Positions 2,254 through 29,300 of a DNA stretch of 43,995 bases are shown one piece after another. The notes under the pieces are model-generated. The model saw nothing but the letters and a program-made list of their open reading frames with translations, made no database searches and was not told the origin of the DNA. A program made the translations under genes and the position numbers. The stretch is from NCBI GenBank assembly GCA_903871905.1, contig CAIQIV010000237.1:1-43995 (forward strand), read 5' to 3'. Every line of letters begins with the position of its first letter. Positions within the stretch are counted from its first letter, which is position 1. The stretch is from an uncultured Chloroflexota bacterium. GTDB lineage: Bacteria; Chloroflexota; Anaerolineae; Anaerolineales; UBA4823.

Positions 2254-2288
2254 CAATCATCTTTTAATCCCTTCCTCAGGAGATTGGT

Positions 2289-2465: not shown

Positions 2466-2517
2466 ATTGGATGGACCCATCCCTTCTCATAATTCTATAT
2501 CTCAACAGGAGACGCCC

Positions 2518-2694
2518 ATGAACAGCACACAAATTCACCCAATTAACAGTCGTGAACATCTGCAGTCCTACCATGTACCGCAAGTCAAGGATCTTGGCTC
2601 TCTCGTCGACCTGACAAAATCTGGCCCAATCCCAGTACTTGAATTTGACGGCGGTATCCAGTTTCCAAATGTGTATACCTCAGGACAAGGTTAG
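2518..2694 (+). CDS. Lasso peptide precursor A2 (58 aa)
   Basis: AGGAG RBS before ATG 2518. MNSTQIHPINSREHLQSYHVPQVKDLGSLVDLTK|SGPIPVLEFDGGIQFPNVYTSGQG*, with leader motif, Thr at -2 and Glu8. Confidence 0.9.
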   Translation: MNSTQIHPINSREHLQSYHVPQVKDLGSLVDLTKSGPIPVLEFDGGIQFPNVYTSGQG

Positions 2695-2715
2695 CCTGCC
2701 TGGCGTCACAACTGG

Positions 2716-2755
2716 AAGAGGATTGGATTGGCGCTAATCCAATCCTCTTTTTTTT
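2716..2755 (+). terminator. Intrinsic terminator after the precursor genes
   Basis: AAGAGGATTGGATTG-gcgc-TAATCCAATCCTCTT hairpin followed by a T run. Confidence 0.85.
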
Positions 2756-2793
2756 CAAGTTCCTCTAGGGGAGTAACCTGAAAGCAGGTTCCG

Positions 2794-3786: not shown

Positions 3787-4733
3787 GCGCCCCCCCTTCG
3801 CTCTCCGTGGTTACCACCACTCACAACGGCGAGCGCTTCCTGCCCACGGCGCTGGCAAGCATCCTGGACCAGTCTTTTACCGATTTTGAATACATCCTGG
3901 TGGATGATGGCTCAACCGATGGCACGCCTGATATCCTGGTAGACTACGCCAGCCGGGACGCACGCATCCATCTCATTCGGAATGATCAACCCCTGGGACC
4001 AGGAGGGGCGCTCAACCAGGCCCTGCAGGCTGCTCGCGGCCGGTATGTCGCCAACCTGGACCACGATGACCTGGCCCGCCCGGCGCGCCTGGAAAAGCAG
4101 GCTGCTTACCTGGACTGGCATCCGGCGGTGGGGGTGCTCGGCGCCTGGGCGGAGGTGATCTCCGCCGCGGACAAAGTGGTGAAGACCTGGAAATACCCCG
4201 TCCGCCCGGCGCTGGCGCACTGGGGGATGTATTTCTCGGCGACGGTGCTGCACTCGGCTGTCATGGCGCGTCGGGAGCTGCTGCTGCAGGCAGGCGGCTA
4301 TTCAGCCTACCACCGCTTTACCGTCGATTACCAGCTCTGGCTGCGCCTGCTGTGGCAGACTCAGTTTGCCAACCTGCCGCACTGCCTGGCCGCTTACCGC
4401 ATCAGCCCGGAGCAGGCCTCCATGCGCCAGGCTGATCTGCAGCACGGGCAGGTGATCCTGGCCCAGCAGGCCGCCCTGGGTCGCCTGTTGGGGAGAAGGC
4501 CGGATTTACAGGCCGTGCTGGACCTCACCCTGGCCCGCTCCGGGCGCCGGCTGCGGGACGCCGCCGCGGTGCGCAGGGCAGCCCACCTGCTGCAGCGCGC
4601 CGCCCTGGCTTACCGCCGGGCAGCCAACCTGTCCCCCGGTGACCAGCAGCGCCTGGCGCTCGATCTTGCCCGCCGCATCTCCCGCCTCAAGCCAGAAAAA
4701 TCCGCTTTGCTTGCCGGTCAGAGTGGTGCTTAA
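3783..4733 (+). CDS. Glycosyltransferase family 2
   Basis: SVVTTTHNGERFL, VDDGSTDGT and LDHDD (DxD) motifs. The start overlaps the kinase stop (ATGA). Confidence 0.9.
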   Translation: MSAPPSLSVVTTTHNGERFLPTALASILDQSFTDFEYILVDDGSTDGTPDILVDYASRDARIHLIRNDQPLGPGGALNQALQAARGRYVANLDHDDLARPARLEKQAAYLDWHPAVGVLGAWAEVISAADKVVKTWKYPVRPALAHWGMYFSATVLHSAVMARRELLLQAGGYSAYHRFTVDYQLWLRLLWQTQFANLPHCLAAYRISPEQASMRQADLQHGQVILAQQAALGRLLGRRPDLQAVLDLTLARSGRRLRDAAAVRRAAHLLQRAALAYRRAANLSPGDQQRLALDLARRISRLKPEKSALLAGQSGA

Positions 4734-4734
4734 C

Positions 4735-4758
4735 AAAAAAGCGGGCCTGGCGGCCCGC
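4735..4758 (-). terminator. Intrinsic terminator between convergent GT2 and iorB
   Basis: GCGGGCC-tggc-GGCCCGC hairpin with an A6 run on +, i.e. a U tail on -. Confidence 0.7.
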
Positions 4759-4764
4759 CATCTC

Positions 4765-5403
4765 TCATCCTAAACTGACGCTCTCCCGCCCGGCCAGGAA
4801 CGCCCGGCGGTTGAGTTCGACATACTTGGGCGGCACGCGCTCGGTGATCACCTTCAGCCAGGTGTCCTGCGTCGCCACCGGCAGCGACCAGCGCTCCGCG
4901 CTCATCAGGTTGCCGCTCTCCACTACCCGCGACAACGCCCCCAACAGCACCACGTTGGCTACCTTGGGGTTTCCCAGCTCCGCAGCGATCGCCCCGCCGT
5001 TCACATACGCCGTGTGCGGGGTCACCTGGGCCAGCACGCCGCGCAGCGTATCGTCGTCCGGGTAAGCCTGCCCACCCGAGGTCACGGTGACCGGCTCAAT
5101 CGCTTCCATGTTCACCAGCGCCAGCGCCCCGGGGCGCAGGTACTGCAGGTAGCGCAGTGCTTCCACCTTCTCAAAAGCCAGCAGCACATCCGCCTCGCCG
5201 GCGCCGACCAGCGGAGAGTACACCACCCGTCCCCAGCGCACATAGCTGGTCACGCTGCCGCCGCGCTGCGACATACCGTGCACCTCGGCCTGCTTGGCCT
5301 GGTAGCCGGAGGCCAGCCCCACGTTGACCAGCACATCACTGGCCAGGATCGTCCCCTGGCCGCCAACCCCGCTCAATAGAAAGTTCAGAATATCCTTGGA
5401 CAT
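4765..5403 (-). CDS. iorB: Indolepyruvate ferredoxin oxidoreductase beta subunit
   Basis: MSKDILNFLLSGVGGQGTILAS...EVHGMSQRGGSV, directly downstream of iorA. Start reassigned to ATG 5403. Confidence 0.92.
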   Translation of the reverse strand: MSKDILNFLLSGVGGQGTILASDVLVNVGLASGYQAKQAEVHGMSQRGGSVTSYVRWGRVVYSPLVGAGEADVLLAFEKVEALRYLQYLRPGALALVNMEAIEPVTVTSGGQAYPDDDTLRGVLAQVTPHTAYVNGGAIAAELGNPKVANVVLLGALSRVVESGNLMSAERWSLPVATQDTWLKVITERVPPKYVELNRRAFLAGRESVSLG

Positions 5404-5414
5404 CTTGTTCCCTC

Positions 5415-7223
5415 TCAATTCACCGGCGCCATTTGCTCTTCTGGCCGGAAGGTGATCGCATCCCGCGGGCAGATCTGGGCGCAGATCTCGCAGCCCGTGC
5501 ACATGCTGGCGTCGATCAGCGCCTTGGGCCGCTGGTAGCGCTCGTCCAGCTCTTCGCTCTTGAGGATCGCCGGGCAGCCGATGCGGAAGCACAGGGCGCA
5601 GCCGTTGCACTTTTCGTCGATCACATCCAGCGGCACCCAGCGCTTGCGAGCATCGGGCAGCAGGGCGCACGGCTCCACCGTGATCAGCACCGAGGGCTCA
5701 TCCAGCTTGAGGAACTCTTTGAGCGTTTTTTCGATTTCTTCTACCTCAAAAGCCGGGACAGATTTGACGTGCTTGATCCCCAGGGCGCGCACCAGCGGCT
5801 CCAGCTGGATCTCGGTGGTCATCTGCCCCTGCAGCGTGCGTCCATTGACCGGGTTGTCCTGGTGACCGGTCATCCCGGTCACGCGATTATCCATGATCAC
5901 CGTGACCACCGGACTCTGGTTATACACCGTGTTGACCAGCGCCGGGATGCCGGTATGGAAAAAGGTCGAGTCGCCGATCACCGCCACGAAGCGCTCGGGG
6001 CTGCCGCTGCGCGCCGCACCGTGCGCCACGCCAATGCCCGCCCCCATGCAGCCGGTGGTGTGGATCGCCGACAGCGGCGGCACCAGGCCCAGGGTGTAGC
6101 AGCCGATGTCGCCGTTGACCGGCACCTTGAGCTTGTGCAGCACGTAGAAGGTGCTTCGGTGCGGGCAGCCAGGGCACAGCACCGGAGGCCGGCTGGGCAG
6201 TGGCGCCAGTTCAAACTCCGGCAGGGGCACATGCAGTTCCGCCGGCAGCAGCCCGGCGCGGATGGCGCTCTCGCGCACCACGCGTTGGTCCAGCTCCCCA
6301 ATCAGGGGAAAAATGCTCTTGCCTTCCACCGAGATGCCCATCAGCTTAACCGCTTCTTCGATAAACGGATCCAGCTCCTCCACCACGATCAACCGCTCCA
6401 CCTGGCTGGCAAAATGCTCGATCAGCTTCCTGGGAAGCGGCCAGGTCATCCCCAGGTGCAGGATGGAGGCGTCGGGGAAGACCTCTTTTGCATACTGGTA
6501 CGCCACACCGGCGGTAATGATCCCCAAGGATTTATCCCCCATCTCGATGCGGTTGTAGGGGAAGGTTTCCGCCATTTCAGCAATATCCAGCATGCGCTGC
6601 TCGATCACCGGGTGGCGCTTGATGGCATTGCCGGGGACCATGACGTACTTCTCCGGGTTGCGTGGGAACTTGCTCTGCGCCGCGCAGGGCGGCGGGTCCA
6701 CCCGCTCCCCCAGCTCCACGGCGCTGGTTGAATGGCAGATGCGGGTGGTCATGCGCAGCAGCACCGGGGTATCAAAGCGCTCGCTCAATCCAAAAGCAGC
6801 AATCGTCAGGTCCTTGGCTTCCTGGCTGTCGCTGGGCTCAAGGCACGGGACACGGGCAAACTTGGCAAAGGTACGATTATCCTGCTCATTCTGGCTGGAA
6901 TGCATCTGCGGGTCATCGGCAGTGACGATCACCAGGCCAGCCTCGATGCCGGTCATGGCCACGTACATAAAGGCATCCGCAGCCACGTTCAGGCCAACAT
7001 GCTTCATGGAGGAAAAGGCGCGCTTGCCAGCGTAAGCCGCGCCAATGGCCACATCGACAGCCACCTTCTCGTTCGGCGCCCACTCGGCGTAGACATTAGG
7101 GAAACGGGCAAAGTTTTCCAGAATCTCCGTGCTGGGTGTGCCGGGATAAGCCGAAGCCAGCGCTACCCCTGCCTCCCAGGCGCCGCGTGCCACGGCCTCG
7201 TTGCCGGAGAGCATACGAATCAT
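5415..7223 (-). CDS. iorA: Indolepyruvate ferredoxin oxidoreductase alpha subunit
   Basis: LSGNEAVARGA, YPGTPSTEI, LCPGCPHR, GDIGCY and GDSTF (TPP) motifs, plus a C-terminal 2x[4Fe-4S] ferredoxin. Confidence 0.95.
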   Translation of the reverse strand: MIRMLSGNEAVARGAWEAGVALASAYPGTPSTEILENFARFPNVYAEWAPNEKVAVDVAIGAAYAGKRAFSSMKHVGLNVAADAFMYVAMTGIEAGLVIVTADDPQMHSSQNEQDNRTFAKFARVPCLEPSDSQEAKDLTIAAFGLSERFDTPVLLRMTTRICHSTSAVELGERVDPPPCAAQSKFPRNPEKYVMVPGNAIKRHPVIEQRMLDIAEMAETFPYNRIEMGDKSLGIITAGVAYQYAKEVFPDASILHLGMTWPLPRKLIEHFASQVERLIVVEELDPFIEEAVKLMGISVEGKSIFPLIGELDQRVVRESAIRAGLLPAELHVPLPEFELAPLPSRPPVLCPGCPHRSTFYVLHKLKVPVNGDIGCYTLGLVPPLSAIHTTGCMGAGIGVAHGAARSGSPERFVAVIGDSTFFHTGIPALVNTVYNQSPVVTVIMDNRVTGMTGHQDNPVNGRTLQGQMTTEIQLEPLVRALGIKHVKSVPAFEVEEIEKTLKEFLKLDEPSVLITVEPCALLPDARKRWVPLDVIDEKCNGCALCFRIGCPAILKSEELDERYQRPKALIDASMCTGCEICAQICPRDAITFRPEEQMAPVN

Positions 7224-12718: not shown

Positions 12719-14494
12719 ATGAAAGCATTTGCCCGCCTGCTCACGTACTACAAGCCTTATCGTGCCCGGCTGATCTTCTCACAGGTGCTGCTCTTGATCT
12801 CTGCAACCTGTTCCATGGGCGCCGCCTCGCTCACCGGACGCCTGATCAATGCAGGGATCATTGCCGGCGATGGTGAGGTGCTGATCGAGACCGGCATGTG
12901 GATGCTGGTCCTGGCCGCCTGCGCTGGCATCTGCATGGCCGGCACCGCCTACCTGGCAGTCTACTTCTCCCAGGGTACCGCCTGGGCGCTGCGCACCCAT
13001 ATCTACAAAAAAATCCAGACCTACTCTTTTGCAAACTTTGATCACTTGCGCACCGGCAACCTGCTGGTGCGCTTGAGCGCCGACATTCAAAATGTCAATT
13101 TCGCCATAATGTATGCGGTGATGCTGCTGCTGTTCGGCCCGTTTATGCTGGTGGTGTCTTTCGTGCTCTCCATCCTGTTCACCCCACAGCTGGTCTGGCT
13201 GATGGTGATCACCACGATCGTGATATTGGTGCTGATGTGGTTCATTGTACCCCGCTTGTTCCGCAACTTCATCCTGCGCCAGAAACGCCTGGACGAAGTC
13301 AATAATACTATGCAGGAAAACCTGGCCGGCATGCGCGTGGTCAAGGCTTTTGTTCGTGAGGATCTCGAAATTGCTAAGTTCCGCAAGCGCGCCGAGGCCA
13401 TGCGCCTCCCGGCGTTCCAGGCGGCGTTCATCATCATGCTGCTTAACCCGCTGCTGCAAATGGTCGGCGCGGCGGCGCGGGCGGTCGCCATCTGGATCGG
13501 AGGCGAACAGGTCCTGGCCAGCGCCGGCCTCCAGGTTGGCACGTTGATCACCTTCACCCAGTACCTGGCGCAGGTGGTCACCCCGCTGGCCTTGATGGCC
13601 ATCCTGGTGCCGTTCATCCTACGCGGGGAGAACTCCGCTCAGCGCCTGTTCGAGATCTACGATGCCGAGCCCCTGGTCAAAGACAAAGAGAACGCGCAGA
13701 AGCTGGATCCTGAGCAGGTGCGCGGCGAAATTGCCTTTGAAAACGTGACCTTTGCCTTCCGCCGACCGGATGGGGAACTCGACCCGCCCGCCTTGAAAAA
13801 CATCACCCTGAAGATCAAGCCCGGGCAGCGGGTCGGCTTCCTGGGCGCTACCGGCGCCGGGAAGTCCGCCCTGGTCAACCTGATCCCACGCTTCTATGAT
13901 GTAGACGAGGGGCGCATCACCATCGATGGGGTGGATGTGCGCGACCTGGAGCAGGAAAACCTGCGCCAGGTGGTGGGGATCGCTTTGCAAGAGGCGGTGC
14001 TGTTCCAGGGCGACCTGCGCTTCAATCTGAAGTTTGCCAACCCAGATGTGGATGACGAGGTGATGGAGGCCGGCGCCAAGGCAGCAGACGCCTATGGCTT
14101 TGCAACCAACCTGCCCGAAAAATGGGACGCTCCGGTGTCCCGCCGCGGCTACAACTTCTCCGGCGGGCAGCGCCAGCGCCTATCCATGGCCCGCTCGCTG
14201 ACCGCCCAGCCGCGCATCCTGATCCTGGATGACAGCACCAGCGCCCTGGATGTGGCTACCGAGAGCCGGGTGCAGGGCAATATCCCTGTTCACACCCACG
14301 GGGCGACCACCATTTACGTTGCCCAGCGCATCAGCGCCGTGATCGACCTGGATCAGATTTACCTGCTGCAAAACGGCGAGATCGTGGACACCGGAACTCA
14401 CGAGGAGCTGCTGAGGCGCAGTCCTCTCTACCATGAAATTTTCGAATCCCAGCTCGGCGCCGGTGTGACGGCTGGGGCGGAGGTGGAAGAATGA
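12719..14494 (+). CDS. ABC exporter permease/ATPase, heterodimer subunit with degenerate site
   Basis: TMD plus GATGAGKS, FSGGQRQR, Walker B ILILDD and AQR switch (TM287-like). Confidence 0.92.
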   Translation: MKAFARLLTYYKPYRARLIFSQVLLLISATCSMGAASLTGRLINAGIIAGDGEVLIETGMWMLVLAACAGICMAGTAYLAVYFSQGTAWALRTHIYKKIQTYSFANFDHLRTGNLLVRLSADIQNVNFAIMYAVMLLLFGPFMLVVSFVLSILFTPQLVWLMVITTIVILVLMWFIVPRLFRNFILRQKRLDEVNNTMQENLAGMRVVKAFVREDLEIAKFRKRAEAMRLPAFQAAFIIMLLNPLLQMVGAAARAVAIWIGGEQVLASAGLQVGTLITFTQYLAQVVTPLALMAILVPFILRGENSAQRLFEIYDAEPLVKDKENAQKLDPEQVRGEIAFENVTFAFRRPDGELDPPALKNITLKIKPGQRVGFLGATGAGKSALVNLIPRFYDVDEGRITIDGVDVRDLEQENLRQVVGIALQEAVLFQGDLRFNLKFANPDVDDEVMEAGAKAADAYGFATNLPEKWDAPVSRRGYNFSGGQRQRLSMARSLTAQPRILILDDSTSALDVATESRVQGNIPVHTHGATTIYVAQRISAVIDLDQIYLLQNGEIVDTGTHEELLRRSPLYHEIFESQLGAGVTAGAEVEE

Positions 14495-16371
14495 CCACTA
14501 CCAGTGCATCCACAACCAAGACCAGCCAGGCGCAGGCCAAATCCCGGGGATATTCCCGGGCAACCACTGCCCCCACGCGCAAAGGCGACTCCAGCCAGGT
14601 GCTCCTGCGCCTGATCGGCTACATGATCGACCGGGAAAACCGGTTACGCCTGGTCGTGGCCACCCTGGCGCTCCTGCTGTCCATCATCGCCCTGATTGCC
14701 ATTCCCTGGCTGACCGGCAGAGCGATCAACCTGCTCAGCTCCAGCGGAGGCTCATTGAGCCAGCTGCGCAGCCTGATCACCTGGGCGCTGGTCTCCTGTG
14801 CGGTTTACTTTTTATTAGGCCTGTATGCCAGCCGCCAGTACTCATACCTGGCGACCCGCGGCCTGTTCAAGCTCCAGAACGACCTGTTCAGCCACATGCA
14901 GTCACTCTCGCTGTCTTTCTTCGACCGCCAGCCCCTGGGCCAGCTGGTGAGCCGGGTGACCAACGACGCCGAGACAGTGGCCCAATTCTATGAAAATGCT
15001 GTGTCTCAGATCATCCAGTCGCTGCTGCAGATCCTGCTCATCCTGGGTGTGATGTTGATCACCGACTGGAGGCTCACCATCGCTGCCCTGTTGGTCGTTC
15101 CAGTGCTGTTGTATGTCACCTCTACCGTCGAGCGGGTCTCCTCGCCTGCCTTTGCCAGGCTGCAGGAGGAATTGGGCAATATGTCCGGTTTCCAGGAGGA
15201 GACCATAACCGGCAATAAAGTGATCATCAGCTGCCGCCGCCAGGATTGGGCTGGCGAGCAGAATGAGAAGCTGGCAGACGGGGTTTTCGATGTCGCCAGC
15301 AAGGCCTACTTCGCCGCCCTGCTGCAGTTTCCGGTGACCAGTGTGCTGATCCTGGTGCAGACGGTGATCGTGCTCATTTTTGGTGGTTTCCTGGTCATTG
15401 ATGGCCAGACCGACCTGGGCACCGTCACCGCCTTTGTCGCCTATTCTGCCATGCTGGGCACCCCGCTCTCCGACCTGTCCAACATACTCAGCACTGCCCT
15501 GGCCGCGGTTGCCGGTGGGAGGCGGGTATTCGAGGTGATCGATGAGCAGCCAACCGTGGTGGATACCCCCAGCGCCCAAGACTACCAATTCCAGGGTGGG
15601 CACGTGGAGTTCAAGAACGTGGATTTCAGCTATGTCAAAGGGCGCAAGATCCTCAAGCACAACACCTTTGAAGCGCTCCCTGGGCAGAAGATCGGCATCT
15701 GCGGCCCAACCGGCGCCGGGAAATCCACCATCATCAACATCCTCACCCGCTATTACGACATCGACGGCGGCATGATCCTGATCGACGGGCAGGACATCAG
15801 CAAGCTTACCCAGGTCAGCCTGCGCCAGCAGATTGGCGTGGTGCTGCAGGAGGCTTTTCTCTTCACCGATACGGTGATGAACAATCTGAAATACGCCCGT
15901 CCCGACGCAACCGACGAGGAGTGCATCCAGGCCGCCCAGCAGGCCAATGCCCACGAGTTTATCACCCGCCTGCAAAAGGGCTACCAGACGATGATGACCG
16001 AGCGCGGCGCCAACCTGAGCCAGGGACAGCGCCAGATGCTCACCATTGCCCGTGCTATGGTGGCTAACCCGCGCCTGCTGGTTCTGGACGAGGCTACCAG
16101 CAACGTGGATACGCGCACCGAAAAGCTGATCCAGCAGGGGCTGCAGCGCCTGATAGCCGGGCGCACCAGCTTTGTCATTGCCCACCGGTTGAGCACCATT
16201 CGCGATTCTGCCCGCATCCTGGTGGTCAACGGCGGCGAGATTGTGGAGTCAGGTCCCCATGATGAGCTAATGGCGGCTAAGGGCTTTTACTATGCGCTGT
16301 ATATGAGCCAGTTCAAGGGCAAGCTGCCCGGCGGGCAGGCCGCGGCAAGCGCCGATTTTATCAGTACTTAG
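14491..16371 (+). CDS. ABC exporter permease/ATPase, heterodimer subunit with consensus site
   Basis: TMD plus GPTGAGKS, LSQGQRQ, LVLDEAT and AHRL (TM288-like). It overlaps the upstream gene by 4 nt. Confidence 0.92.
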   Translation: MTTTSASTTKTSQAQAKSRGYSRATTAPTRKGDSSQVLLRLIGYMIDRENRLRLVVATLALLLSIIALIAIPWLTGRAINLLSSSGGSLSQLRSLITWALVSCAVYFLLGLYASRQYSYLATRGLFKLQNDLFSHMQSLSLSFFDRQPLGQLVSRVTNDAETVAQFYENAVSQIIQSLLQILLILGVMLITDWRLTIAALLVVPVLLYVTSTVERVSSPAFARLQEELGNMSGFQEETITGNKVIISCRRQDWAGEQNEKLADGVFDVASKAYFAALLQFPVTSVLILVQTVIVLIFGGFLVIDGQTDLGTVTAFVAYSAMLGTPLSDLSNILSTALAAVAGGRRVFEVIDEQPTVVDTPSAQDYQFQGGHVEFKNVDFSYVKGRKILKHNTFEALPGQKIGICGPTGAGKSTIINILTRYYDIDGGMILIDGQDISKLTQVSLRQQIGVVLQEAFLFTDTVMNNLKYARPDATDEECIQAAQQANAHEFITRLQKGYQTMMTERGANLSQGQRQMLTIARAMVANPRLLVLDEATSNVDTRTEKLIQQGLQRLIAGRTSFVIAHRLSTIRDSARILVVNGGEIVESGPHDELMAAKGFYYALYMSQFKGKLPGGQAAASADFIST

Positions 16372-16390
16372 CGCCAGGCAGGAGAGGCAC

Positions 16391-16552
16391 TTGCAAACGA
16401 AGGATGCAAACCAACCTATCAAACCCGCTCTTCCCCACCTGAAAATCCACAGCGGGTTGCGCGCCGGCTGCGATTGCGATGATCACTGCCAGAAGTGTGG
16501 GCTGTGGGGAAAATACTGGTGCGAGGCCGACTGCACCCGCGGCGGCGCATAA
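16391..16552 (+). CDS. Small Cys-rich peptide, putative leader+core precursor (53 aa; not in ORF track)
   Basis: AGGAG RBS (16380-84) then TTG start: MQTKDANQPIKPALPHLKIHSGLRAG-CDCDDHCQKCGLWGKYWCEADCTRGGA*. All six Cys fall in the C-terminal half. Confidence 0.7.
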   Translation: MQTKDANQPIKPALPHLKIHSGLRAGCDCDDHCQKCGLWGKYWCEADCTRGGA

Positions 16553-16598
16553 ATGACACCGCCCCGTTATACCGCGAGGGGCGTCGGAGTGAACACCT

Positions 16599-17402
16599 TT
16601 AGCCCAGGTCCAGTACGCTGTCCAGGCCGCGGCGTAGCCCGGTAAAGGTATGCACCTGGCGAATGGCCAGCAGCGCCCCGCCCACGTAAGGCTCAGCGCT
16701 GCTGCCCGCGTCATGGCGCAGGGTGAGTTGCTGCCCGGGCAAGCCAAAGATAATCTCCACTGAAATAGTATACCCGGGGAGGCGGATGGAGTGCACCTGC
16801 GAGCCATTGAGACGCGCCCCTCGCGTCTCAACCGGACCCTGTGTCTGCTCAAGCGGCACGGTCAGCTCCGCATGGCGAATCTTTGACAGGCGGGCAGCCA
16901 GTTCGCGCGCAGTCCCACTGGGCGCATCCCGTTTGTCGGCGTGGGCATAGTCAATGATTTCCCATTGGGGCAGGTGCCGGGCTGCCATCTCGGCAAACTT
17001 TTGCAACAGAACCACGGTGAGGGCAAAATTGCCGACCGCCAGCAGGCCGCGCTGCTGCCGATCAGCCTCCTGTGCCAATTCAGCGTAATCGGCGTCGGTC
17101 AATCCTGAGGTGCCGATTACCACCTGGCTGCCGTGCTGCAGCGCCGCCAGGCAGTTTCCCCTGGCCGCATCTGGTTTTGTGTAGTCAAAGAAAACATCGC
17201 AGGGTTGGGACAGCGCCTCCTCAGCCGTGGAAAAAACAGGGCAAGCCAGGCGCGGCTCGTCTAAAATCTCGCCCAAAACGCTTCCTGCATAGGTGCGAGA
17301 CACCGCCGCTGTTAGCTCAATATCCTCCGTTTGGGCAATCCCCCGGGCGAGCGCCGAGCCCGCCCAGCCGGTTGCCCCCGCCAGGCACACACGAATAACC
17401 AT
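16599..17402 (-). CDS. dapB: 4-hydroxy-tetrahydrodipicolinate reductase
   Basis: RVCLAGATGWAG, VIGTSG, HADKRDAPSGTA and HSIRLPG motifs. GGAGGAG RBS before ATG 17402. Confidence 0.92.
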   Translation of the reverse strand: MVIRVCLAGATGWAGSALARGIAQTEDIELTAAVSRTYAGSVLGEILDEPRLACPVFSTAEEALSQPCDVFFDYTKPDAARGNCLAALQHGSQVVIGTSGLTDADYAELAQEADRQQRGLLAVGNFALTVVLLQKFAEMAARHLPQWEIIDYAHADKRDAPSGTARELAARLSKIRHAELTVPLEQTQGPVETRGARLNGSQVHSIRLPGYTISVEIIFGLPGQQLTLRHDAGSSAEPYVGGALLAIRQVHTFTGLRRGLDSVLDLG

Positions 17403-17421
17403 GTCTCCTCCAATTTTAATC

Positions 17422-17450
17422 AAAAAGACGCCCGGGTGGGCGTCTCTCTC
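17422..17450 (-). terminator. Terminator downstream of tRNA-Asn
   Basis: AGACGCCC-N4-GGGCGTCT hairpin followed by TTTT on minus. Confidence 0.65.
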
Positions 17451-17527
17451 TGGCTCCTCGACCAGGACTCGAACCTGGAACCTAGCGGTTAACAGCCGCC
17501 CGCTCTGCCGAATTGAGCTATCGAGGA
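17451..17527 (-). tRNA. tRNA-Asn (GTT)
   Basis: The reverse complement TCCTCGA-TAGCTCAATTCGGCAGAGC-GGGCGG-CTGTTAA-CCGCT-AGGTT-CCAGG-TTCGAGT-CCTGG-TCGAGGA-G-CCA folds as a cloverleaf with anticodon GTT and encoded CCA. Confidence 0.97.
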
Positions 17528-17541
17528 ATTTAGCGCCCCGG

Positions 17542-17570
17542 ATTATAGTCGCAAGGGGTGATCGTGTCAA
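17542..17570 (-). promoter_or_regulatory. Consensus sigma70 promoter of tRNA-Asn
   Basis: Perfect TTGACA-17-TATAAT followed by a GC-rich discriminator (CCGGGGCGC). Confidence 0.9.
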
Positions 17571-17632
17571 GGCGTCGGCACCTCTTTTTTGAACCAATTT
17601 TCAGTGAGATTCCCGTCTGCATCCCGCCTTGC

Positions 17633-18768: not shown

Positions 18769-18821
18769 CTCAATACTTTATTCAGCCTCTTTCCATCCCA
18801 CCTGACCTTTGAGGCTTGCCC

Positions 18822-19664
18822 ATGCCGCTGAAAGGCGATTTACGCGATTTCTCAACCTCACAGCTGCTCAATTTGATCAGCGTGGCCCGCAAAACAGGGA
18901 CGCTGATCGTTGAGTCCCATTCTGACAGCTACCTGGTCTGCTTCCGAGAGGGAAAACTGGCTTATGCCCAGGCAGGCAGGTCAGATAACGGGCTGGCGGC
19001 TGTGCTGGCGCAGGCCAAGAAGATCACGCCTGCCCAATACAAGACGCTTCACGAAAAAGCTGCCGGGATGAGTGATAAAGAGCTGGGGCTGCTGTTGATC
19101 AACGCCAATTACATCACCCAGCAGGATATCCTCACCAGCCTGCAGAACTACTTCATCAGCATCATCCACAAGTTGTTTGACCTGCCAGAAGGCGCCTTCC
19201 GTTTTGAGGGGGGGCTGCAGCCGCCGGAAAGCAAAATCACCCTGCGCATCAACCTGGAAAATCTGATTATCGAAGGCACGCGCCGCCAGCGCGAGCTGGA
19301 GCACCTGCAGGATGAGCTGCCCAGCCTGGACGTGGCCCTGAAATTTAGTGAGCGCCCGGGCGCAAATATTCAAGAGCTGCACTTGAGCCAGGATGAGTGG
19401 CGGGTGGTGCGCTTTGTCAGCCCGAAGAACACCCTGCGCCAGATCGCTGCTGCGGCGGGGCTGAACGAACTGCAGCTGCGGCGCATCGTCTTCAGCCTGC
19501 TGCAAGCCGGGGTGGTCGAGATCATCCGCCTGCCGGCGTCCGGATCACAGGGCAGCGGCTCTATGCCAGCCGATTCACCTGAGCCAGCCCAAAAGGCCGC
19601 CAGGAATCCGGCCGAGCAGCGCTCGCTGATCAACCGCCTGATCAACCGTATCCGCTCACTGTAG
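18822..19664 (+). CDS. DUF4388 (PatA-N-like) domain protein with C-terminal wHTH-like region
   Basis: LKGDLRDFSTSQLLNLI...KTGTL...FREGKLAYA, ELGLLL, EGAFRF and LSQDEWRV...L..AGVVE patterns. Confidence 0.8.
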   Translation: MPLKGDLRDFSTSQLLNLISVARKTGTLIVESHSDSYLVCFREGKLAYAQAGRSDNGLAAVLAQAKKITPAQYKTLHEKAAGMSDKELGLLLINANYITQQDILTSLQNYFISIIHKLFDLPEGAFRFEGGLQPPESKITLRINLENLIIEGTRRQRELEHLQDELPSLDVALKFSERPGANIQELHLSQDEWRVVRFVSPKNTLRQIAAAAGLNELQLRRIVFSLLQAGVVEIIRLPASGSQGSGSMPADSPEPAQKAARNPAEQRSLINRLINRIRSL

Positions 19665-19685
19665 CACCAGGAGACTGCCAGGACC

Positions 19686-20324
19686 ATGGCCAATCCGAAA
19701 CACCCCCTGCCTCGAGATCCGAAGGGCGAAACTCCAAAACACAGCCCTGAGCCTGTCCAAGGACAGAAGAGCGCGGTACAAACCGTCAAAATGGTGGTCA
19801 CCGGGCCGTTTAATGCCGGGAAGACCGAATTTATCCGCTCGGTGAGTGAGATCGATGTGGTCTCCACGGAACGCAAGATTTCTTCCTCCACCGAGCGATC
19901 CGCAGTCACCAAGGAGTCGACCACCGTGGCCATGGACTTCGGACGTATCACAGTAGACGATGACCTGGTGCTCTATCTGTTCGGCACACCTGGCCAGAAA
20001 CGCTTCGAATTCATGTGGGAGATCCTTTCCGAAGGCATGTTGGGCTTTATTGTGATGGTCGACAGCACGCGCCCCGAGACTTTCCGCGAGGCGCGCAGCA
20101 TCCTGGAGACATTCCGCGCTTACGCCCCCACACCCTACGTGGTGGCAGCCAACAAACAGGACATGCCCGATGCCTGGGAAATTGAGGATATGCGCATCGC
20201 CCTACGCCTGGATGACCAGGTAAAGATGATGCCATGCTCTGCCACCAACAAAGAGACGGTTAAGAATGTCCTTTTGGAGCTGCTGTACTCCATCCTGGCA
20301 GAAATGGAAGAGAGCGGGGACTAG
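19686..20324 (+). CDS. Small GTPase, MglA/CvnD-like (ATP/GTP-binding protein)
   Basis: GPFNAGKT (G1), TTVAMDFG (G2), LFGTPGQKRF (G3), NKQD (G4) and CSA (G5). Confidence 0.9.
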   Translation: MANPKHPLPRDPKGETPKHSPEPVQGQKSAVQTVKMVVTGPFNAGKTEFIRSVSEIDVVSTERKISSSTERSAVTKESTTVAMDFGRITVDDDLVLYLFGTPGQKRFEFMWEILSEGMLGFIVMVDSTRPETFREARSILETFRAYAPTPYVVAANKQDMPDAWEIEDMRIALRLDDQVKMMPCSATNKETVKNVLLELLYSILAEMEESGD

Positions 20325-22450: not shown

Positions 22451-23353
22451 ATGGGTAAACCCAGACTGCTCATCGTGGAAGACGACTTCGACATTGCCAA
22501 CATGCTGCGTATCTATTTCACCGGTCAAAAATATGACGTAGACCTGGCGCCGCGCGGCGGCGATGCCCTGGAGAAAACGCGCCACAACCTGCCGCACCTG
22601 ATCGTGCTGGATATTATGCTGCCAGATATCGACGGGTTTGAAGTCTGTCGCATCCTGCGCACCAACACGCGCACCAGCCACGTGCCGATCATCTTCTTGA
22701 CCCAGAAGGATGAGCGTAGTGATAAGCTGCAGGGGCTGGAGTTGGGCGCCGACGATTACATCACCAAGCCTTTTGACATCGACGAGCTCAAGCTGCGCGT
22801 GCAGCGAGCCATTGTGCGCGCCGAGCAGCAGAGTCTGACCGATCCTCGCTCTGGATTGCCCGCCGGGCGCCTGATTGAAGACCAGCTGCGGCGCATTATC
22901 CGCCTGAAGGACTGGGCCTTGATGGATATCCGCCTGAACCACTTTGAGCCTTTCAAAGAGACCTATGGCTTTGTGGCTGCAGATGACGTAGTACGCTTCA
23001 CCGCCATGCTGCTGGGAGAGGTCGTGGACGAGCGAGGATCAACCCAGGATTTCATTGGCCACGCCGGCGGCGATAACTTCATTGTCATTACCAGCGAGAC
23101 GGCCGCCCCAGGTATCACCGCCCGTCTCAAGGAGCGTTTCAGCCAGGAGGTGCTCTCCCACTACAGCTTCATTGACCGCCAGCAGGGTTTTGTGCTCGCC
23201 AGTGGTCCAGGAGGCCAGCCGGTAGAGGCGCATCTGATGAGCATGGCAATTGGCGTGGTTTCTCCCTCGCAGCACGATTTTGCCGATATTCGCGAGATCA
23301 CCGAGCTGGCCGCTGAGGCGCGCCGCCAGCAATCTGCCGGCTCTCCTGCCTGA
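22451..23353 (+). CDS. Response regulator with degenerate GGDEF domain
   Basis: REC domain (VEDD, LDIMLP, TKPF) followed by DPRSGLP...HAGGDNF. Confidence 0.88.
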   Translation: MGKPRLLIVEDDFDIANMLRIYFTGQKYDVDLAPRGGDALEKTRHNLPHLIVLDIMLPDIDGFEVCRILRTNTRTSHVPIIFLTQKDERSDKLQGLELGADDYITKPFDIDELKLRVQRAIVRAEQQSLTDPRSGLPAGRLIEDQLRRIIRLKDWALMDIRLNHFEPFKETYGFVAADDVVRFTAMLLGEVVDERGSTQDFIGHAGGDNFIVITSETAAPGITARLKERFSQEVLSHYSFIDRQQGFVLASGPGGQPVEAHLMSMAIGVVSPSQHDFADIREITELAAEARRQQSAGSPA

Positions 23354-23356: not shown

Positions 23357-26300
23357 ATGAACATTGTTTCCCTGGGGATCATCCTGGCGCTGGTGGGGGC
23401 AGGCGCCGCCGCGCTGATTTTTGTATTGGCGCGCCGATCTGCGCAGCGTCCGTCGGATGTCCCGCTGCCCGCTGCCCGAGATGATCTTGCCACCCTGGCA
23501 AGCCACCAGCCTGCTTCTGCTGCCTGGCAGCCCGGCCAGGACTTTCCCCACGAAAGCGAAACTTTCTCCACCTCGCCCGACCAGGCTGTGCTGGTGATCC
23601 TTCCCGGCGGGACGGTGGGGCATCTTAACCAGACCGCGCGACAGTGGTTCAATATCCGGCAGACGCCGCCTAACCTGGAGTGGATTGCCCGCCGTCTGCA
23701 GCCAGAGGGCAGTTTTCTTGAACTGTGCCTGAAAGAGAGCCGGAGGCGACTGCAGTTAGATGGCGCTTACCTGGACGCATCCTCCTGCCGCATCCCATCC
23801 AACGGATCCCCCCCGCCGATGCTGGTCATCCTGCACCGCCTGGAGTGGGGCGAGACGGAGGAACAAATCTATGGGCAACCTGAGATCACAGGCGGTTCCG
23901 CCACAACCGCCTTTGAGTTATATGCTTCCTACTGCCAGGTAGCCAGCCTGTCCCTGGATCTGGAACAGGCGCTGGTTGCCATTCTTGAAGGAATCGAACG
24001 CTTGCTCCCAGCGGACCTGATCCAGGTCACGGTTTGGGACGCGAACACCCGCTGCCTGGCGCCCTACCGCCTGTTAGGGCTGCCAGGTGAAAAGCGCAGC
24101 CTGGAACCCCTGCCCGAGCTGCGCGGTGAAAACCTGGGATATTCAGCAGCGCTGATCCAGGAGCGCATGCCTGTTCGCCTCTCACTGCACAATCCCCTGC
24201 AGGAAGATCAACAAGCACGGCGTGGAATGGCTGCAGCAGAGCGGGCAGGGTCGATCTCACCTGCCATCTTCGCCTCCTTCCTGGGGGCGCCGCTGTTAGC
24301 CGGCGGACAATTCGTGGGGACCATTGAAGCTGCATCTCGTTCCCCCTCCAGCTTTACTCAGGATGACGAGCGCTTGATCGCCTGGCTGGCTGCGCCAGCC
24401 GCCACTGCTGTACAGCGCGCCGAGCACTACCGTACTGCCACGCAGGAGCAGCTGCTGACCAGGCTGGCGGAGTTGTCCGAGGCTGCCCAGGCTGCCAGTG
24501 ATACCCGCCGGCTGCTTGGCCTGATATTGGAGTATATCCGGCCGCTGGCGCCCGCAGAGATTAACGGTATCTTGCTGTACGATGAACACCGGCAGATGTT
24601 GGTTGGCAAGGAACCCTTTGCCGGCATCCCCCTTTACACACTGGAATGGTGTCGTGCCTTCCTGGCACCGGGCAGCCCGGCTGAAGCGATCTGGCTGCAA
24701 GGCCAGACGATCGTCTCAAATAATGCTCCTGAAGATCCTGCCTGGCAGGCGCTTGGCCTGCACAACCTGGCGCAAGCTGCCGGTATCCAACAGGCTATCC
24801 TGGCGCCGCTGCGCGCCCTGGGAAAACGCCTGGGCTATCTGCTGTTGGCCAAGCCCAAGCGAGGTAACTTTGAGCCGGCTGAAATCCAGCTGCTCGAAGC
24901 AGCGGTTGCCCGAGCCAGCGGCCTGGTGCTTCGCCACCAGGAGGAAAAACAGGCACAGTACCAGGCACAGGTCGATCAAGCCCTGCATCACCTGGCCCGC
25001 CTGGCCTGGGATCCGGTCAACCGGGATGAAATCCTGGTCACTGCACTAAGGGAGCTGGTCGCTCTGCTGGACGCTTCCTGCGCCGCAGCATTCCTGGTTC
25101 AGGGAGGCGCCCGGCTGCAGCCGCACCTGCCCTCGCTGATAGGGTTCGGCTCAAGCCCGGAGACACAGCCAGCCGCTATCCAGACCGATACCCCGGAATA
25201 CGCCCAAACCGCTGCAGCCACTGGCATCCCCATCCTGGCTGACCTGGGCAGGGAAGATGAAGAAATGGGACAGCCTGCGGTGACAGACCTGCGCCAGGCT
25301 CCCCTGCCTTACCGCCACCTGTCCGAAAAATACGGCATCGCCAGCGCCCTCATCCTGCCTATTGGAAACGGCAGCAGCTTTCGGGGGGAAATGCTGCTGG
25401 GTTCCCCTCATTCTGGCTATTTTACCCCCAGCGACTTGCAGATCGCCGGGCTGGCTGCGAATTTCTTGAGCGGCGCCCTGGAGCAGGCGCAGCAGCGTGA
25501 AAGCGCCGCTCCTTACCTGGGACAGCAGGTATCCCGCACCACCGCCCTGCTGCGCGCCAGCCGCGAGATTGGCCGCTGGATGGAATTCCCAGGGCTGCTG
25601 CACAGCCTGCATGACCAGGCGCTGCGTCTAAGCGGAGCTGACTGCGGCACGGTGGTCTTTTTTGATCCACAGACCTCCCGCCCGGGCATGCCGGCTATCT
25701 CCGGCTTTCATGGCGACCCTCCAGGAGAACAACTCAGCAGTCTGGAGCTGTCCGCGCTCCCCCAGCCGGATGGTGTGCTCCAGGACGATCCGGATCCCAC
25801 CCCGCATCCTGGCGTGCATGCCTCCCTGCTTGTCCCCATCAACTTCCAGGATAAACTGGTCGGGCTGATCCACGTTCATGCCATTGCCCGGAGCCGCTTC
25901 TCTGGACCCAGCCAGGAGAGCCTCCAGATCCTGGCGCAGCAAGCTGGCGCCGCCTGGGACAATGCACGCCGTTACCAGGAGCTGCAGCAGCGCAGCCAGG
26001 TGCTGACTGAGCGCCTGGGAACCCTGGCTCATCTCTTCGAAACCTCCCGCCTGTTGGAGGTGGATCAGCCGCTGGAAGAGTTGTTAGCCGCCATTGCCTC
26101 CGCCATCCAGGCTGCCACTCCCTTTGAATCAGTTTTGATCAGTGTCTACCAGGCAGAAAGCAACTCGCTTAAGCGACTGGCGGGGGCGGGCATCCCCACC
26201 TCCTTGATGCGTGATCTGCAAGCCGTTGCCCAGCCGTGGCCGGCTGTCCTGGACCTGCTGCAGGCTGAATTTCGCGTCGGACGAGCCTATTTTATACCGG

Positions 26301-29300
26301 CTGAAAAGCGTCCGGTTGTGCTCCACGATCTGTACCCGGTCAATGTCCTGCCAGCCGCCAGCCTCGAGGCACAGGCCATGGAAAACCAGCAGCAGCCCTG
26401 GCATGCAGATGATCTGCTGCTGGTCCCCCTGTTCGACGCGGCCGGCCAGCCCCTGGGGATGGTCAGCGTGGACGCCCCACGCAACCATCTGCGCCCGGAA
26501 CGCCTGGTGGTCGACGGGCTGGAGATATTCTGCAGCCAGGCGGCCCTGGGCATCGAGCGCTACCAGCAGCGCCTGGCACAGCGCCGCGCTTCCGGCGAGC
26601 TGCTGGCCGGTATGCGTCAGCAGCTAGACCTGGCACCCCATGGGGCAGTGCGTGCCGTTCAGGAGCTGGCAGACCTGCCGTCCCAGGCTATTGACCAGCG
26701 GGCAGCGCGCCTGGCAGCCGGTTTAGACATCGCAGAGCGCGTCTCACAGCAAAAGACGCGCGACGAGGTGCTGCAGGTCTTTGGTCAAGAGTTGGCTGCA
26801 CGCATGGGGCTGGGGACAGCGCTGATCGCCGAAGCCTCACCGGGCGGCCCGCGCTTGCTCTTCAGCCTGGGCAGAATCCCCCAGGTGGTCGTCCCGGGCA
26901 GCCCTGGTCTCGAAGCTCTATTGGGACAGCGCAATCCGCTACGCCAGATTCTACTTGGCAGTAACGCCACCAGCAGCCGGCCGCTGCTGGTGGCCAATCT
27001 CAATGCAGATTCTGAATGGACCAACAGCCCACTGCTTTCCGCCCTGGGAGCTCGCAGCTTTATCTGCCTGCCAATCACCAGCCAGCGCTCTTCCACTGAA
27101 CCTGGCACATCGACGGCGGACAGACCTGGGGTTGACGCCCCATATCTGGCAGTGTTGTGCGTGAGCCAGGAAGCCCTGCCGCCGTTTATCCCGGAAGATG
27201 AGCTGCTGTTCAACCTGTTGGGACGCCAGGTTGGGGTTGTGCTGCACAGCCTGGAGCTGCTGGGAAACAGCCAGCGCCGCCTGCGTGAGGTCAACCTGCT
27301 GCTGGACTTCAGCCGGCAGATCAGCGAGCTGGAGCCGGCGGGCATCCTGCGCGCCCTGGTCGAAAGCGCAGCCCGGGCTGTCCCAGCCGTCCAGGCGGCT
27401 TTTGCTGCTACCTGGGATCCACTGCGCAACCGTCTGACACCCCGGGTTGCCATTGGGTACGCCAACAACGAGCGCATGCGCAAGCTCAGCTATTCCCTGG
27501 GTGAAGGGCTTCCGGGCAAGGTGTTCCAGAGCGCCCAGGCTGTACGCCTGGCCGAGGTTGACTTTGCCAGGCAGTATGACCTGTCAGCTGATAAGCTGCT
27601 GCATTACCGGGACGCCACCGGAGGGCGTCTCCCTGTTTCCACCATGGTCCTGCCGATCCAATCCCCAACTCAGGCAGCCTCACCGTTCGGTGTCCTGGTG
27701 CTCGACAACCAGAGCCTGGAGAACGCTTTCAGCAACGATGACCAGGCCCTGATCGCTTCTCTGGTCTTGCAAACGGCACTCAGCCTGGAGAACGCCCGGT
27801 TGTACCAGTCTTCCGAGCAGCGCTCCCATCAGCTCCAGGCGCTCACCGCTGCAGCCGCCGCTATCACCACCAAGCTGGAGCCGGATGAGCTCATCGCTTC
27901 CCTGATGGACCAGCTGCAAGGGGTGCTGCCGTACGACACCGGCATCCTGTGGATCCGCCAGGGTGAACAGATGGTGGTCAGCCAGGCCCGAGGTTTTGAG
28001 GACAATGACCAGCGCATTGGGCTGACCGTCTCGATTCAGGACAGCCTGCTCATCGGTGAGATGATCCAGACTCGCCTGCCTATCAGCGTGCTGGATATCC
28101 GCAGCGATGAGCGCTTCCCCTCCTGGACCGAATACGACACCGGCCCCCTGGTGCGCCGCCTGTCCTGGTTGGGGGTACCGCTGATCACCGGCGGGCAGGT
28201 CACCGGGGTGATCGTGCTGGAAAAAGCCGAGCCTGGTGTTTACACCTCAGACCAGGTGCAGATCGCCATCACCTTCGCCAGTCAGACCGCCACCAGTCTG
28301 GAGAATGCCCGGCTGTACTCGGAAAGCCTGCGGCGCACATCGGAGCTGGACCGCCGCTCGCGGCTGCTGACTATCCTCAACCGCCTGTCCGGAGATCTCA
28401 GCAGCACCCTGGAGATCTCCCAAATACTGAGCCATGCTACCCGCGAGCTGTATCACCTGATCAATAGCAGCCGGGAGGAGGCAACCCCGCCCTGCTCAGC
28501 GGTAAGCGCTTCCCTGTTCGATCTACTGGGCAGCGTTCGCTACCAGGCCGATTACCCTCCCAGCCGCTCGCCTGTGGACACCCTGCTGGATGAAACACCG
28601 GTTTTTGAGCGCTTCCACCAGGGCCTGACCATTTATATCAGCGATGACGTGTCCCTGGAAAACGAGCTGGCCCCGGTTGCTGAATTCTTGCAGCGTTACC
28701 AGACCTATTCTTTACTCGTGGTCCCCATGACCAGCGGCGCCATGCTGCACGGCCTGCTCATGGTTCATACCTCCCGCATGGTGCACTTTGACCCCCTGGA
28801 GATTGAGCTGGCGCGCTCCATCGGCAACCAGACCGCCATCGCTTTCCAGAACGCCCGACTTTTTGCCGAGACACGCAGCCTGACCGACGACCTGGAGCTG
28901 CGTGTTCTGGAGCGCACCGGTGAGCTGCGCCAGGAGCGGCAGCGGGCAGAGACCCTGCTGCGCATCATCATGGAACTGTCAGCCAGCCTGGACCTGGACC
29001 TGGTGCTTGGAAATACACTGAGCGTGTTAAGCGAGGCAATCGACGCCGAGCAGATCACGGTGCTGCTGGCCCGCCCTGGCGAGCCGTATTTGCACCGCCT
29101 GGCCTCCATCGGCCATGCTTTTGTGCCTCCCGAGCAGAATGTCCCCACCCCCTTCGCCCCTGGCGAGGGGCTGGCCGGCTGGATTATCCAGAACCGGCAG
29201 GCGGCGTTGATCGATGATATCCATCAGGATGACCGGTGGGTGATTCGCCCGGACAACCCTACCCGCCATCGCAGCGCCATCGGTGTACCCCTGCTGGGTG

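Follow-up and report, generated by a model that had tools for sequence, protein, structure and literature searches.

A 53-codon open reading frame that begins just behind a pair of ABC exporter genes raises the question of whether so short a frame is a gene at all and, if it is, by which route its product would leave the cell. The frame lies in a 43,995-nucleotide stretch of DNA from an uncultured bacterium of the Anaerolineae (Chloroflexota), the whole of which was analysed and is here called the window (contig C237). An earlier note on this DNA had described the frame as an unannotated gene in two halves, one leader-like and one cysteine-rich, whose product might be exported by the adjacent ABC heterodimer.

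The small gene and its relatives

The features at this locus, numbered from the first letter of the window, are as follows:

12719..16371, plus strand: pair of half-size ABC exporters (12719-14494 and 14491-16371; Pfam ABC_membrane and ABC_tran)
16380..16384, plus strand: Shine-Dalgarno-like AGGAG, 6 nt before the TTG start, read directly
16391..16552, plus strand: small gene for the putative precursor of a cysteine-rich peptide, 53 codons plus TAA at 16550-16552
16391..16438, plus strand: leader extension at the N-terminus (residues 1-16), variable and with much Lys, Pro, Gln and Thr, from a loose alignment to paralogues
16439..16468, plus strand: conserved decapeptide of the leader, LKIHSGLRAG (residues 17-26), with Ala-Gly as its last two residues and presumed site of cleavage, from the family consensus
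16469..16549, plus strand: core peptide (residues 27-53, 27 aa) with six Cys in the spacing C-x-C-x-D-x-C-x-x-C-x7-C-x3-C, from an alignment of 16 sequences

Direct reading bore out the arrangement that had been described: the upstream ABC gene ends with TAG at 16369-16371, a gap of 19 nt separates it from the TTG at 16391, and the AGGAG lies ahead of the start. This TTG is the sole ATG, GTG or TTG in the frame 5' of the conserved motif. The translation, LQTKDANQPIKPALPHLKIHSGLRAGCDCDDHCQKCGLWGKYWCEADCTRGGA (first codon read as Met), has no cysteine in residues 1-26 and six cysteines and two tryptophans in residues 27-53. GC3 of the frame is 0.70, with 0.67-0.80 in the neighbouring genes (0.67 in dapB and 0.80 in the ABC genes) and 0.53 and 0.64 in overlapping antisense open reading frames of 46 and 163 aa, respectively. 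The next gene past the frame is a convergent dapB (16599-17597, minus strand; Pfam). Scans of 15900-16900 returned no promoter-like site and two weak terminator-like sites, both on the minus strand, and a hairpin 3' of the stop codon was no better than those of shuffled sequences (z 0.28).

Searching the whole assembly (865 contigs) with the window peptide alone recovered paralogous small open reading frames at E-values of 5.6e-7, 2.3e-6 and 6.5e-4. Seven full copies are present (the window copy, those on C5, C63, C132 and C306, and a further two on C245, clustered in tandem), in addition to a C350 copy that is a pseudogene with an in-frame TAG; a profile of the seven sequences, run on the same genome, gave eight open reading frames at E <= 2.5e-8, of which seven are the members of the profile itself and the eighth is the copy with the in-frame TAG. 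In the copies found in this genome, the leader ends L-x-[IV]-[KR]-[ST]-x-L-[RKH]-[AS]-G and the core opens C-x-C-x-D-x-C-x-x-C. Five paralogues start with ATG after a purine-rich site (AAAGGA, AAGGAG and GGAG among them), and no standard start codon precedes the motif in the C306 copy.

Against 1.84 billion representative proteins, the seven-paralogue profile yielded 12 matches at E <= 0.001: six near-identical versions of the paralogues themselves, five clearly distinct peptides that share the leader and the spacing of cysteines and aspartate, and one protein of 123 aa in which the leader motif stands five times in tandem. Across a 16-sequence alignment (A5), G26, C27, D31, C33 and C44 are invariant and C29, C36 and C48 are conserved in most sequences; Gly26 is invariant in alignments A1 and A2 as well. 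Paralogues and homologues keep the leader, the cysteines and the aspartate at 27-45% identity, and the cores of this sub-family, read from the sequences, are hypervariable apart from Cys and Asp and mostly anionic. A word-based protein search (E <= 0.01) returned eight proteins, six of them matching small open reading frames of this genome exactly or nearly and the other two being close relatives of its members. On metagenome contigs, a narrower alignment located further members of the sub-family at three loci, one of which carries three tandem genes with a common leader and differing cores, and the window peptide alone found no relative among 367 pattern matches. A single-protein search in 40 relatives gave nothing below E 0.019 outside the genome under study, and a protein atlas search gave best scores of 0.80, which are below the useful range. 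Homologous small open reading frames, whose absence the earlier note had named among the grounds for refutation, exist both in this genome and in the protein collections.

A related strain is represented by an RNA-library contig of 251 nt that shows 92% identity to the window; it bridges the ABC stop and the peptide start (16224-16473) and, its coverage being partial, leaves out the core at 16474-16552. Two RNA runs, X7 and X9, each cover parts of the stretch, and X5 looks like a repeat of the X7 data. On this contig the frame and the AGGAG are kept and 16439-16473 is free of differences. The three differences within the small frame all change a residue (Q8P, P9T and L14H) and all fall within residues 1-16, whereas the nine in the ABC part are all synonymous, so that the first 16 residues are under weak constraint.

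Its shortness, its TTG start, the overlapping antisense frames and the residue-changing nature of all three differences in the related strain might together suggest a chance, untranslated open frame in G+C-rich DNA. This possibility is effectively refuted by the conservation of the leader, all cysteines and the aspartate in relatives of such low identity, by the low decoy counts of the leader pattern (given below), by the Shine-Dalgarno-like site, and by a GC3 like that of the neighbouring genes. Judged by its sequence and by its paralogues, the window frame is a genuine gene that codes for a cysteine-rich peptide, and one that has gone unannotated, as had been proposed, with no model in Pfam or NCBIfam matching it.

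The leader decapeptide and its cargoes

The search pattern that the earlier note had suggested for the leader does retrieve a family. Among six-frame open reading frames of at most 170 aa in the same genome, a strict leader pattern matched 24, with 4 matches in the reversed decoys and 1 in the shuffled ones; a loose leader pattern matched 37, against 21 and 13, respectively, and because the decoys come so close, its matches need inspection. A consensus of M/L-K-V-R-T-(G/N/D)-L-K-A-G emerged from 83 distinct strict-pattern open reading frames in other genomes, with positions -9 and -5 conserved even though the pattern had left both free. At the positions that the pattern itself restricted, the 83 carry Val, Ile or Leu at -8 (83/83), Arg or Lys at -7 (76/83) and Leu, Ile or Val at -4. 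Position -2, at which the pattern admitted only Ala and Ser, is Ala in 67 and Ser in 16, and matches found by profile again have Ala or Ser there, a few of them Gly instead; position -12 is unconserved. The leader is basic, ends in Ala/Ser-Gly, and has hydrophobic residues alternating at -10, -8 and -4. Because Met at -10 is the first residue in 45 of the 83, which have no N-terminal extension, the minimal leader is ten residues long; in the window peptide, a 16-residue extension stands ahead of the decapeptide. Conservation across the family ends exactly after the Ala-Gly (alignments A1, A2 and A5), which agrees with the division into a leader-like half and a cysteine-rich core made at the outset.

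A lipoprotein signal peptide, with LRAG-C serving as the lipobox, was rejected for the window peptide, because residues 1-26 are polar and basic and contain no hydrophobic stretch. Cysteine at position +1 is confined to the window's cysteine-rich sub-family and is not general in the leader family.

One leader fronts very different cargoes. Looser profiles and patterns found further small open reading frames in the same genome that combine the decapeptide with unrelated cores, and two tagged open reading frames of this genome are LysM proteins; elsewhere, tagged cargoes include zinc-ribbon-like cores, Cys-free cores and LysM domains. All four tagged proteins tested matched Pfam LysM (E 2e-15 to 6e-7), and one tagged cargo is glutaredoxin-like, at a Pfam E-value of 0.017 only. 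LysM is an extracytoplasmic, peptidoglycan-binding domain, and its occurrence behind the decapeptide therefore fits the role of an export signal. When 15 tagged peptides were compared with NCBIfam, 13 had no family at E <= 1 and two gave chance-level matches (E 0.86 and 0.14) to unrelated models, and Pfam scans of tagged neighbourhoods (56 proteins in this genome and 137 in others) revealed no enzyme common to all tagged loci.

Within the taxonomic family, a profile of 14 peptides from this genome (A1) found matches in 17 of 101 genomes, and a conserved tagged peptide of 60 aa, described below, was not found in 300 genomes sampled across the rest of the phylum. Matches in public collections come from metagenome assemblies of Anaerolineae or Anaerolineales, with few outside (one Chloroflexaceae record, one Chloroflexota record and one homologue in Desulfonema magnum, which has no peptidase-containing ABC exporter of the kind introduced below within 6 kb). 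A full-text literature search of sources other than subscription journals and supplements returned nothing on such a leader or on substrates of these exporters in Chloroflexi; a paper in which both 'double-glycine' and 'Chloroflexi' occur (PMC3482391) has toxin peptidases as its topic, as far as its excerpts go.

Two candidate exporters

Only one protein in the genome matches the C39 peptidase, an ABC exporter with this domain at its N-terminus (PCAT), which is encoded on another contig, C2, in the following setting:

C2:11835-14651, minus strand: 938-aa ABC exporter with N-terminal Peptidase_C39, the PCAT (Pfam)
C2:14648-15247, minus strand: small upstream gene, here U199, without family; accessory protein
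C2:15409-15594, opposite strand, divergent from the PCAT: tagged peptide gene
C2:15956-16177, opposite strand, divergent from the PCAT: tagged peptide gene
C2:16272-18458, opposite strand, divergent from the PCAT: second ABC protein
C2:19374-19553, opposite strand, divergent from the PCAT: tagged 60-aa peptide

At 20 orthologous PCAT loci in other genomes, this layout of accessory gene and PCAT facing a second ABC gene is kept wherever the contig allows. The conserved tagged 60-aa peptide adjoins the second ABC gene at 18 of the 20 (13 found by the pattern and five, which vary at -3 or -2, by profile), and the remaining two loci are cut by contig ends, both genomes carrying the peptide on another contig. 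At six loci (L074, L076, L077, L079, L083 and L086) a second tagged open reading frame lies between or beside the two operons, and in the wider collection four tagged genes are arrayed at L105 and six at L114.

The clade of PCATs of roughly 950 aa occurs in 22 of the 101 family genomes and the conserved tagged peptide in the same 22; four further weak C39 matches among these genomes sit in proteins of another type. As for the cysteine-rich profile A1, the PCAT is present in 14 of the 17 genomes that are positive with it, against 8 of the 84 negative ones, and at least four of these eight do carry tagged peptides at the PCAT locus. The three profile-positive genomes without a PCAT (G100, G105 and G113, which are 83-87% complete, the match in G100 containing stops) count against the link. 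The 101 genomes are kin, and such co-occurrence counts overstate the independent support; the physical linkage at 18 of 20 loci is independent of this problem. For the leader, both co-occurrence with the PCAT locus and genetic linkage to it are shown. There is no PCAT at the window locus, which is connected with it through the shared leader and through co-occurrence among related genomes.

The peptidase keeps its catalytic residues, with Q19, C25, H105 and D121 of the C39 domain invariant in 13 aligned orthologues. The PCAT, of about 940 aa, has an insert of roughly 200 residues after this domain, and its nearest model, that of the NHLP-type peptidase exporter TIGR03796, scores 179 bits against a cut-off of 853. 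U199 has no Pfam match at E <= 0.01 and no PDB sequence match at E <= 1; its structure model (pLDDT 72) consists of an N-terminal membrane helix and a beta domain and has no Foldseek match at E <= 0.001. After re-ranking with VIA-align, however, the eleven top places go to periplasmic adaptor (membrane-fusion) proteins, among them EmrA, MacA and BesA (Z 9.5-10.7 over 86-118 residues), followed by generic beta-barrels at Z 8-9. There is thus moderate support, from a predicted structure, for U199 as a membrane-fusion-like adaptor of the sort found in bacteriocin-type exporters. Prediction of a complex between the C39 domain (A4) and the peptide (A2) scored 0.01, the method giving no answer.

We think it likely that the window frame encodes the precursor of a PCAT-processed secreted peptide, belonging to a lineage-specific leader family of one Anaerolineae family. 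The decapeptide (residues 17-26) would be recognised by the single PCAT of the genome (C2:11835-14651), acting with the second ABC protein and the small membrane-fusion-like accessory protein as partners; the leader would be cut after Ala25-Gly26, and the 27-residue core exported. Outside the cell, the six conserved cysteines would most likely form three disulfides, the simplest fate of six invariant or near-invariant cysteines in an exported peptide. Because the cores are hypervariable and the genes multi-copy, the mature peptide is probably bacteriocin-like or has a signalling role; this role, like recognition, cleavage site, export and disulfides, is inferred. Modelling gave the window peptide a low-confidence structure, its mean pLDDT being 60.6 overall and about 72 over the core, which is too weak to support a fold search. 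Processing in trans, as had been anticipated, is the likely case, and the C39 PCAT on C2 is the better candidate for it.

The exporter genes next to the peptide gene offer a second route, in which the adjacent heterodimer (12719-16371) would export the peptide and a separate protease would remove the leader. Neither protein of the pair contains a Peptidase_C39 domain according to Pfam, as the earlier note had already stated. The 19-nt gap on the same strand, with no promoter-like site between the genes, suggests that the peptide is co-transcribed with the ABC genes in this lineage, and the RNA-library contig that spans both is a weak hint of the same, since DNA carry-over is possible and the contig does not prove a transcript. 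On contig C428, moreover, two tagged peptides have an ABC pair in their vicinity, together with genes for a methyltransferase and a GGDEF protein; there, however, the peptides are on the opposite strand. The window pair has orthologues in six other genera (59-68% identity), where it is conserved as a pair and no leader peptide lies within 1.5 kb, and none accompanies any of 29 related ABC loci (0/29). The other paralogues of the window peptide adjoin unrelated genes, not ABC exporters, and such pairs are numerous, with five matches in this genome at E <= 1e-100. The proposal of export by the adjacent heterodimer is therefore not upheld: the pair is probably not the exporter of the window peptide, and we consider its operation with a separate protease very unlikely.

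Maturation, related systems and possible functions

The leader might instead serve mainly for recognition by a maturase, the window peptide being a true RiPP precursor whose cysteines or invariant aspartate are modified before export by an enzyme encoded elsewhere. One tagged precursor (C757:5510-5743) is found 1.4 kb beyond the single LanM gene of the genome (TIGR03897, 827 bits), on the contig that also holds its only LANC_like match, and another tagged peptide lies just past a radical SAM/SPASM gene (its ATG at 2119 is 105 nt after the stop at 2013, with 67 nt to the open frame). The genome has nine SPASM-domain matches, of which one (1227-2183) lies in the window, 14 kb upstream of the peptide gene, and an invariant aspartate within the cysteine cluster could be a substrate for, e.g., radical-SAM thioether links to Asp, other cysteine chemistry being a further option. 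Many scattered precursors with one leader further recall promiscuous-maturase systems, such as that of the prochlorosins, in which one maturase serves many scattered precursors that share a leader. Against these points, no maturase adjoins the sub-family at eight loci in this genome or at three metagenome loci, extending what the earlier note had observed at the window alone. The window core contains, besides six Cys, one Thr and no Ser, which limits a LanM to one ring at most; the radical SAM gene next to the tagged peptide reaches 472 bits with the model for anaerobic sulfatase maturases, above its cut-off of 349; and the leader is found also on LysM and Cys-free proteins, which favours an export tag over a maturase tag. 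On balance we regard a true RiPP precursor as rather unlikely, and modification by an unlinked maturase would leave the export model unchanged. Two particular classes do not fit the window locus: class II lanthipeptide precursors, as the cysteines have no Ser/Thr partners and LanM occurs only on C757, and ranthipeptide/SCIFF and other radical-SAM cysteine-rich peptides, as there is no radical SAM gene within 14 kb and no NCBIfam precursor match.

Six cysteines and acidic residues within 27 aa, in a sub-family whose cores are mostly anionic, would also suit an intracellular, metallothionein-like metal-binding mini-protein, in which the N-terminal motif is neither a secretion nor a cleavage signal. 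However, the window peptide matches no metallothionein or other family in Pfam, the motif is linked to the PCAT locus and also fronts LysM domains, and the cores are hypervariable except for Cys and Asp, making such a protein highly improbable.

How the proposed PCAT-processed leader relates to known ones can be judged first against the double-glycine rule, which excerpts from PMC6363468, covering known C39/PCAT substrates including those of LahT and ComA, give as Gly at -2 with Leu-12, Glu-8 and Leu-7 in a helix. Like the leaders of double-glycine systems (PCAT/AMS), the decapeptide is a short N-terminal sequence before a hypervariable cargo, ends in two small residues and has a hydrophobic residue at -4, and like these systems it is linked to a PCAT that has an accessory protein, keeps its Cys/His/Asp triad intact and would serve many substrates per exporter. 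Linkage to and co-occurrence with a C39-peptidase ABC exporter hold for the leader family and not at the window locus. Double-glycine leaders end in Gly-Gly, Gly-Ala or Gly-Ser, in contrast to the Ala-Gly or Ser-Gly found here (Ala25-Gly26 in the window peptide), and where they have Leu-7 and Glu-8, the decapeptide has Arg or Lys at -7, as at -3, and Val or Ile at -8. Its alternate hydrophobic residues suggest a strand rather than a helix, and its ten-residue minimal form is shorter than the leaders used by studied C39 domains. Because position -2 and the helix pattern differ, the leader is best placed, on sequence features, as a variant of the double-glycine type and not as a member, apparently alike in role and different in sequence; and because it departs from the canonical rule and is only ten residues long, its cleavage by a C39 peptidase is not assured.

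Nif11 and nitrile-hydratase-like (NHLP) peptides are leader families that were reportedly described by Haft in 2010. The decapeptide shares with them that one leader family fronts precursors destined for different maturases (in this case LanM, perhaps also a radical SAM enzyme, or no maturase), that its genes are associated with those for an adaptor-like protein and two ABC proteins, one of them a peptidase-bearing exporter, and that many precursor genes are dispersed within each genome. In contrast to both, it shows no sequence similarity to them (curated NCBIfam models), is far shorter, fronts cargo that includes folded domains such as LysM, and occurs mainly in one family of Anaerolineae. 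Excerpts of PMC6363468 name both leader families together with a three-gene export system. Small proteins exported by PCATs are also the subject of PMC6959990 and PMC12184118, whose excerpts treat CtA, the cargo of PCAT1, and MAM of Faecalibacterium. As far as these excerpts go, the resemblance lies in the PCAT as a general route for small proteins without Sec signals, beyond antimicrobials, and the difference in the tag, CtA and MAM having canonical GG leaders, and in the larger cargo set here, of about 24 per genome.

If the decapeptide acts as proposed, a C39 peptidase that accepts Ala or Ser at -2 and a basic leader of ten residues would widen the specificity of this enzyme class and might provide a tool for leader removal. 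The tag is also a simple pattern by which to list putatively secreted small proteins that have escaped gene callers as well as family databases (roughly two dozen per genome here), and it points at the same time to their probable exporter. Anaerolineae are abundant, mostly uncultured and filamentous, and to our knowledge almost nothing has been reported of their secreted products. Going further, and quite tentatively, the decapeptide could be a new export signal, read as an extended strand, that gives the small proteins of Anaerolineae a secretion route of their own, the C-x-C-x-D-x-C peptides being extracellular and metal-binding or redox-active rather than antimicrobial. Cysteine-rich peptides, lanthipeptide precursors, zinc-ribbon mini-proteins and wall-binding LysM domains would then all be cargo of this route.

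New peptides of bacteriocin-like, signalling or metal-binding function may be sought among the hypervariable cysteine-rich cores. Laterosporulin is a disulfide-rich class II bacteriocin with six cysteines, and the window peptide resembles bacteriocins of this type in being small, in having six cysteines and in probably forming an extracellular peptide with three disulfides; it differs from them in having no sequence similarity, in its anionic core, and in the invariant aspartate of the C-x-C-x-D-x-C motif.

A second ABC pair with tagged peptides, and the LanM locus

The genome to which the window belongs (G000, an uncultured Anaerolineae bacterium) has a second locus (L023, contig C428:840-8149) that carries an ABC exporter pair together with a SAM-dependent methyltransferase gene and a GAF-GGDEF gene. 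Adjoining these genes, on the opposite strand, are two genes for tagged peptides, i.e., small ORFs with the leader decapeptide (consensus M/L-K-V-R-T-x-L-K-A-G). The gene content of this locus resembles that of the window (GGDEF, MFS, ICMT-like methyltransferase, ABC pair and peptide), and two other genomes have loci (L048 and L050) syntenic with its peptide-thioredoxin segment.

At the LanM locus of the same genome, a plus-strand gene lying between LanM and the tagged precursor (contig C757:4326-5462; GC3 0.89) codes for a roughly 380-aa membrane protein whose N-terminus is the motif MQIRSGIRAG. The longer minus-strand ORF (4101-5426), which selection by length had favoured, is spurious.

Apparently decayed, tandem and distant relatives

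Within the Cys-rich sub-family (the window peptide and its own-genome paralogues, with the core pattern C-x-C-x-D-x-C), two copies look decayed, C350:6628-6801 on the minus strand and C306:10265-10441 on the plus strand: the C350 copy has an in-frame TAG 3' of the Cys motif, and in the C306 copy neither ATG nor GTG nor TTG occurs upstream of the leader motif. A 123-aa protein from a public collection (P0017) consists of five leader decapeptides in tandem, each followed by a short segment with N-H-S-E-A, and looks like a multi-cassette precursor.

Outside the Chloroflexota, the chromosome of the deltaproteobacterium Desulfonema magnum encodes a homologue (L106:5992-6183; 52% identity) of the conserved 60-aa tagged peptide that accompanies PCAT, the C39-peptidase ABC exporter, and the N-terminal motifs of the two are similar. 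No PCAT gene occurs within 6 kb of this homologue, which is flanked by two flavoprotein genes.

A module of two neighbouring tagged genes recurs in six other genomes (loci L051, L052, L055, L056, L058 and L060). One gene encodes a roughly 95-aa peptide in which Cys residues are conserved, the other a zinc-ribbon-like peptide about 45 aa long; both are found in L052, L058 and L060, and one of the two in L051, L055 and L056. An HtrA-like protease gene adjoins the module in L052, L055, L058 and L060. In L051, L055, L056 and L060 there is a small sulfotransferase gene beside it, followed by a sulfatase gene; the sulfotransferase hints that the peptides may be sulfated.

Other genes in the window

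The plus-strand genes at the 5' end (2-4733) could form a polysaccharide cluster or a peptide-modification cluster:

within 2-4733, +, asparagine-synthase-like gene, truncated at the window edge
1227-2183, +, radical SAM protein of 318 aa with a weak SPASM match
2947-3786, +, ORF without any family
within 2-4733, +, family-2 glycosyltransferase gene

The dapB ORF (16599-17597, minus strand) measures 332 aa from its first start codon, but the DapB_N domain begins at residue 68; the true start probably lies some 60 codons further in. Signalling and GTPase genes are also present:

18816-20324, +, DUF4388 protein, then a small Ras/MglA-like GTPase
22451-23353, response regulator whose GGDEF domain is degenerate, preceding the histidine kinase
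23357-30619, +, sensor histidine kinase of 2420 aa with about ten GAF domains, one PAS, HisKA and HATPase_c

The pairing of DUF4388 with a Ras/MglA-like GTPase is known in gliding and polarity modules.
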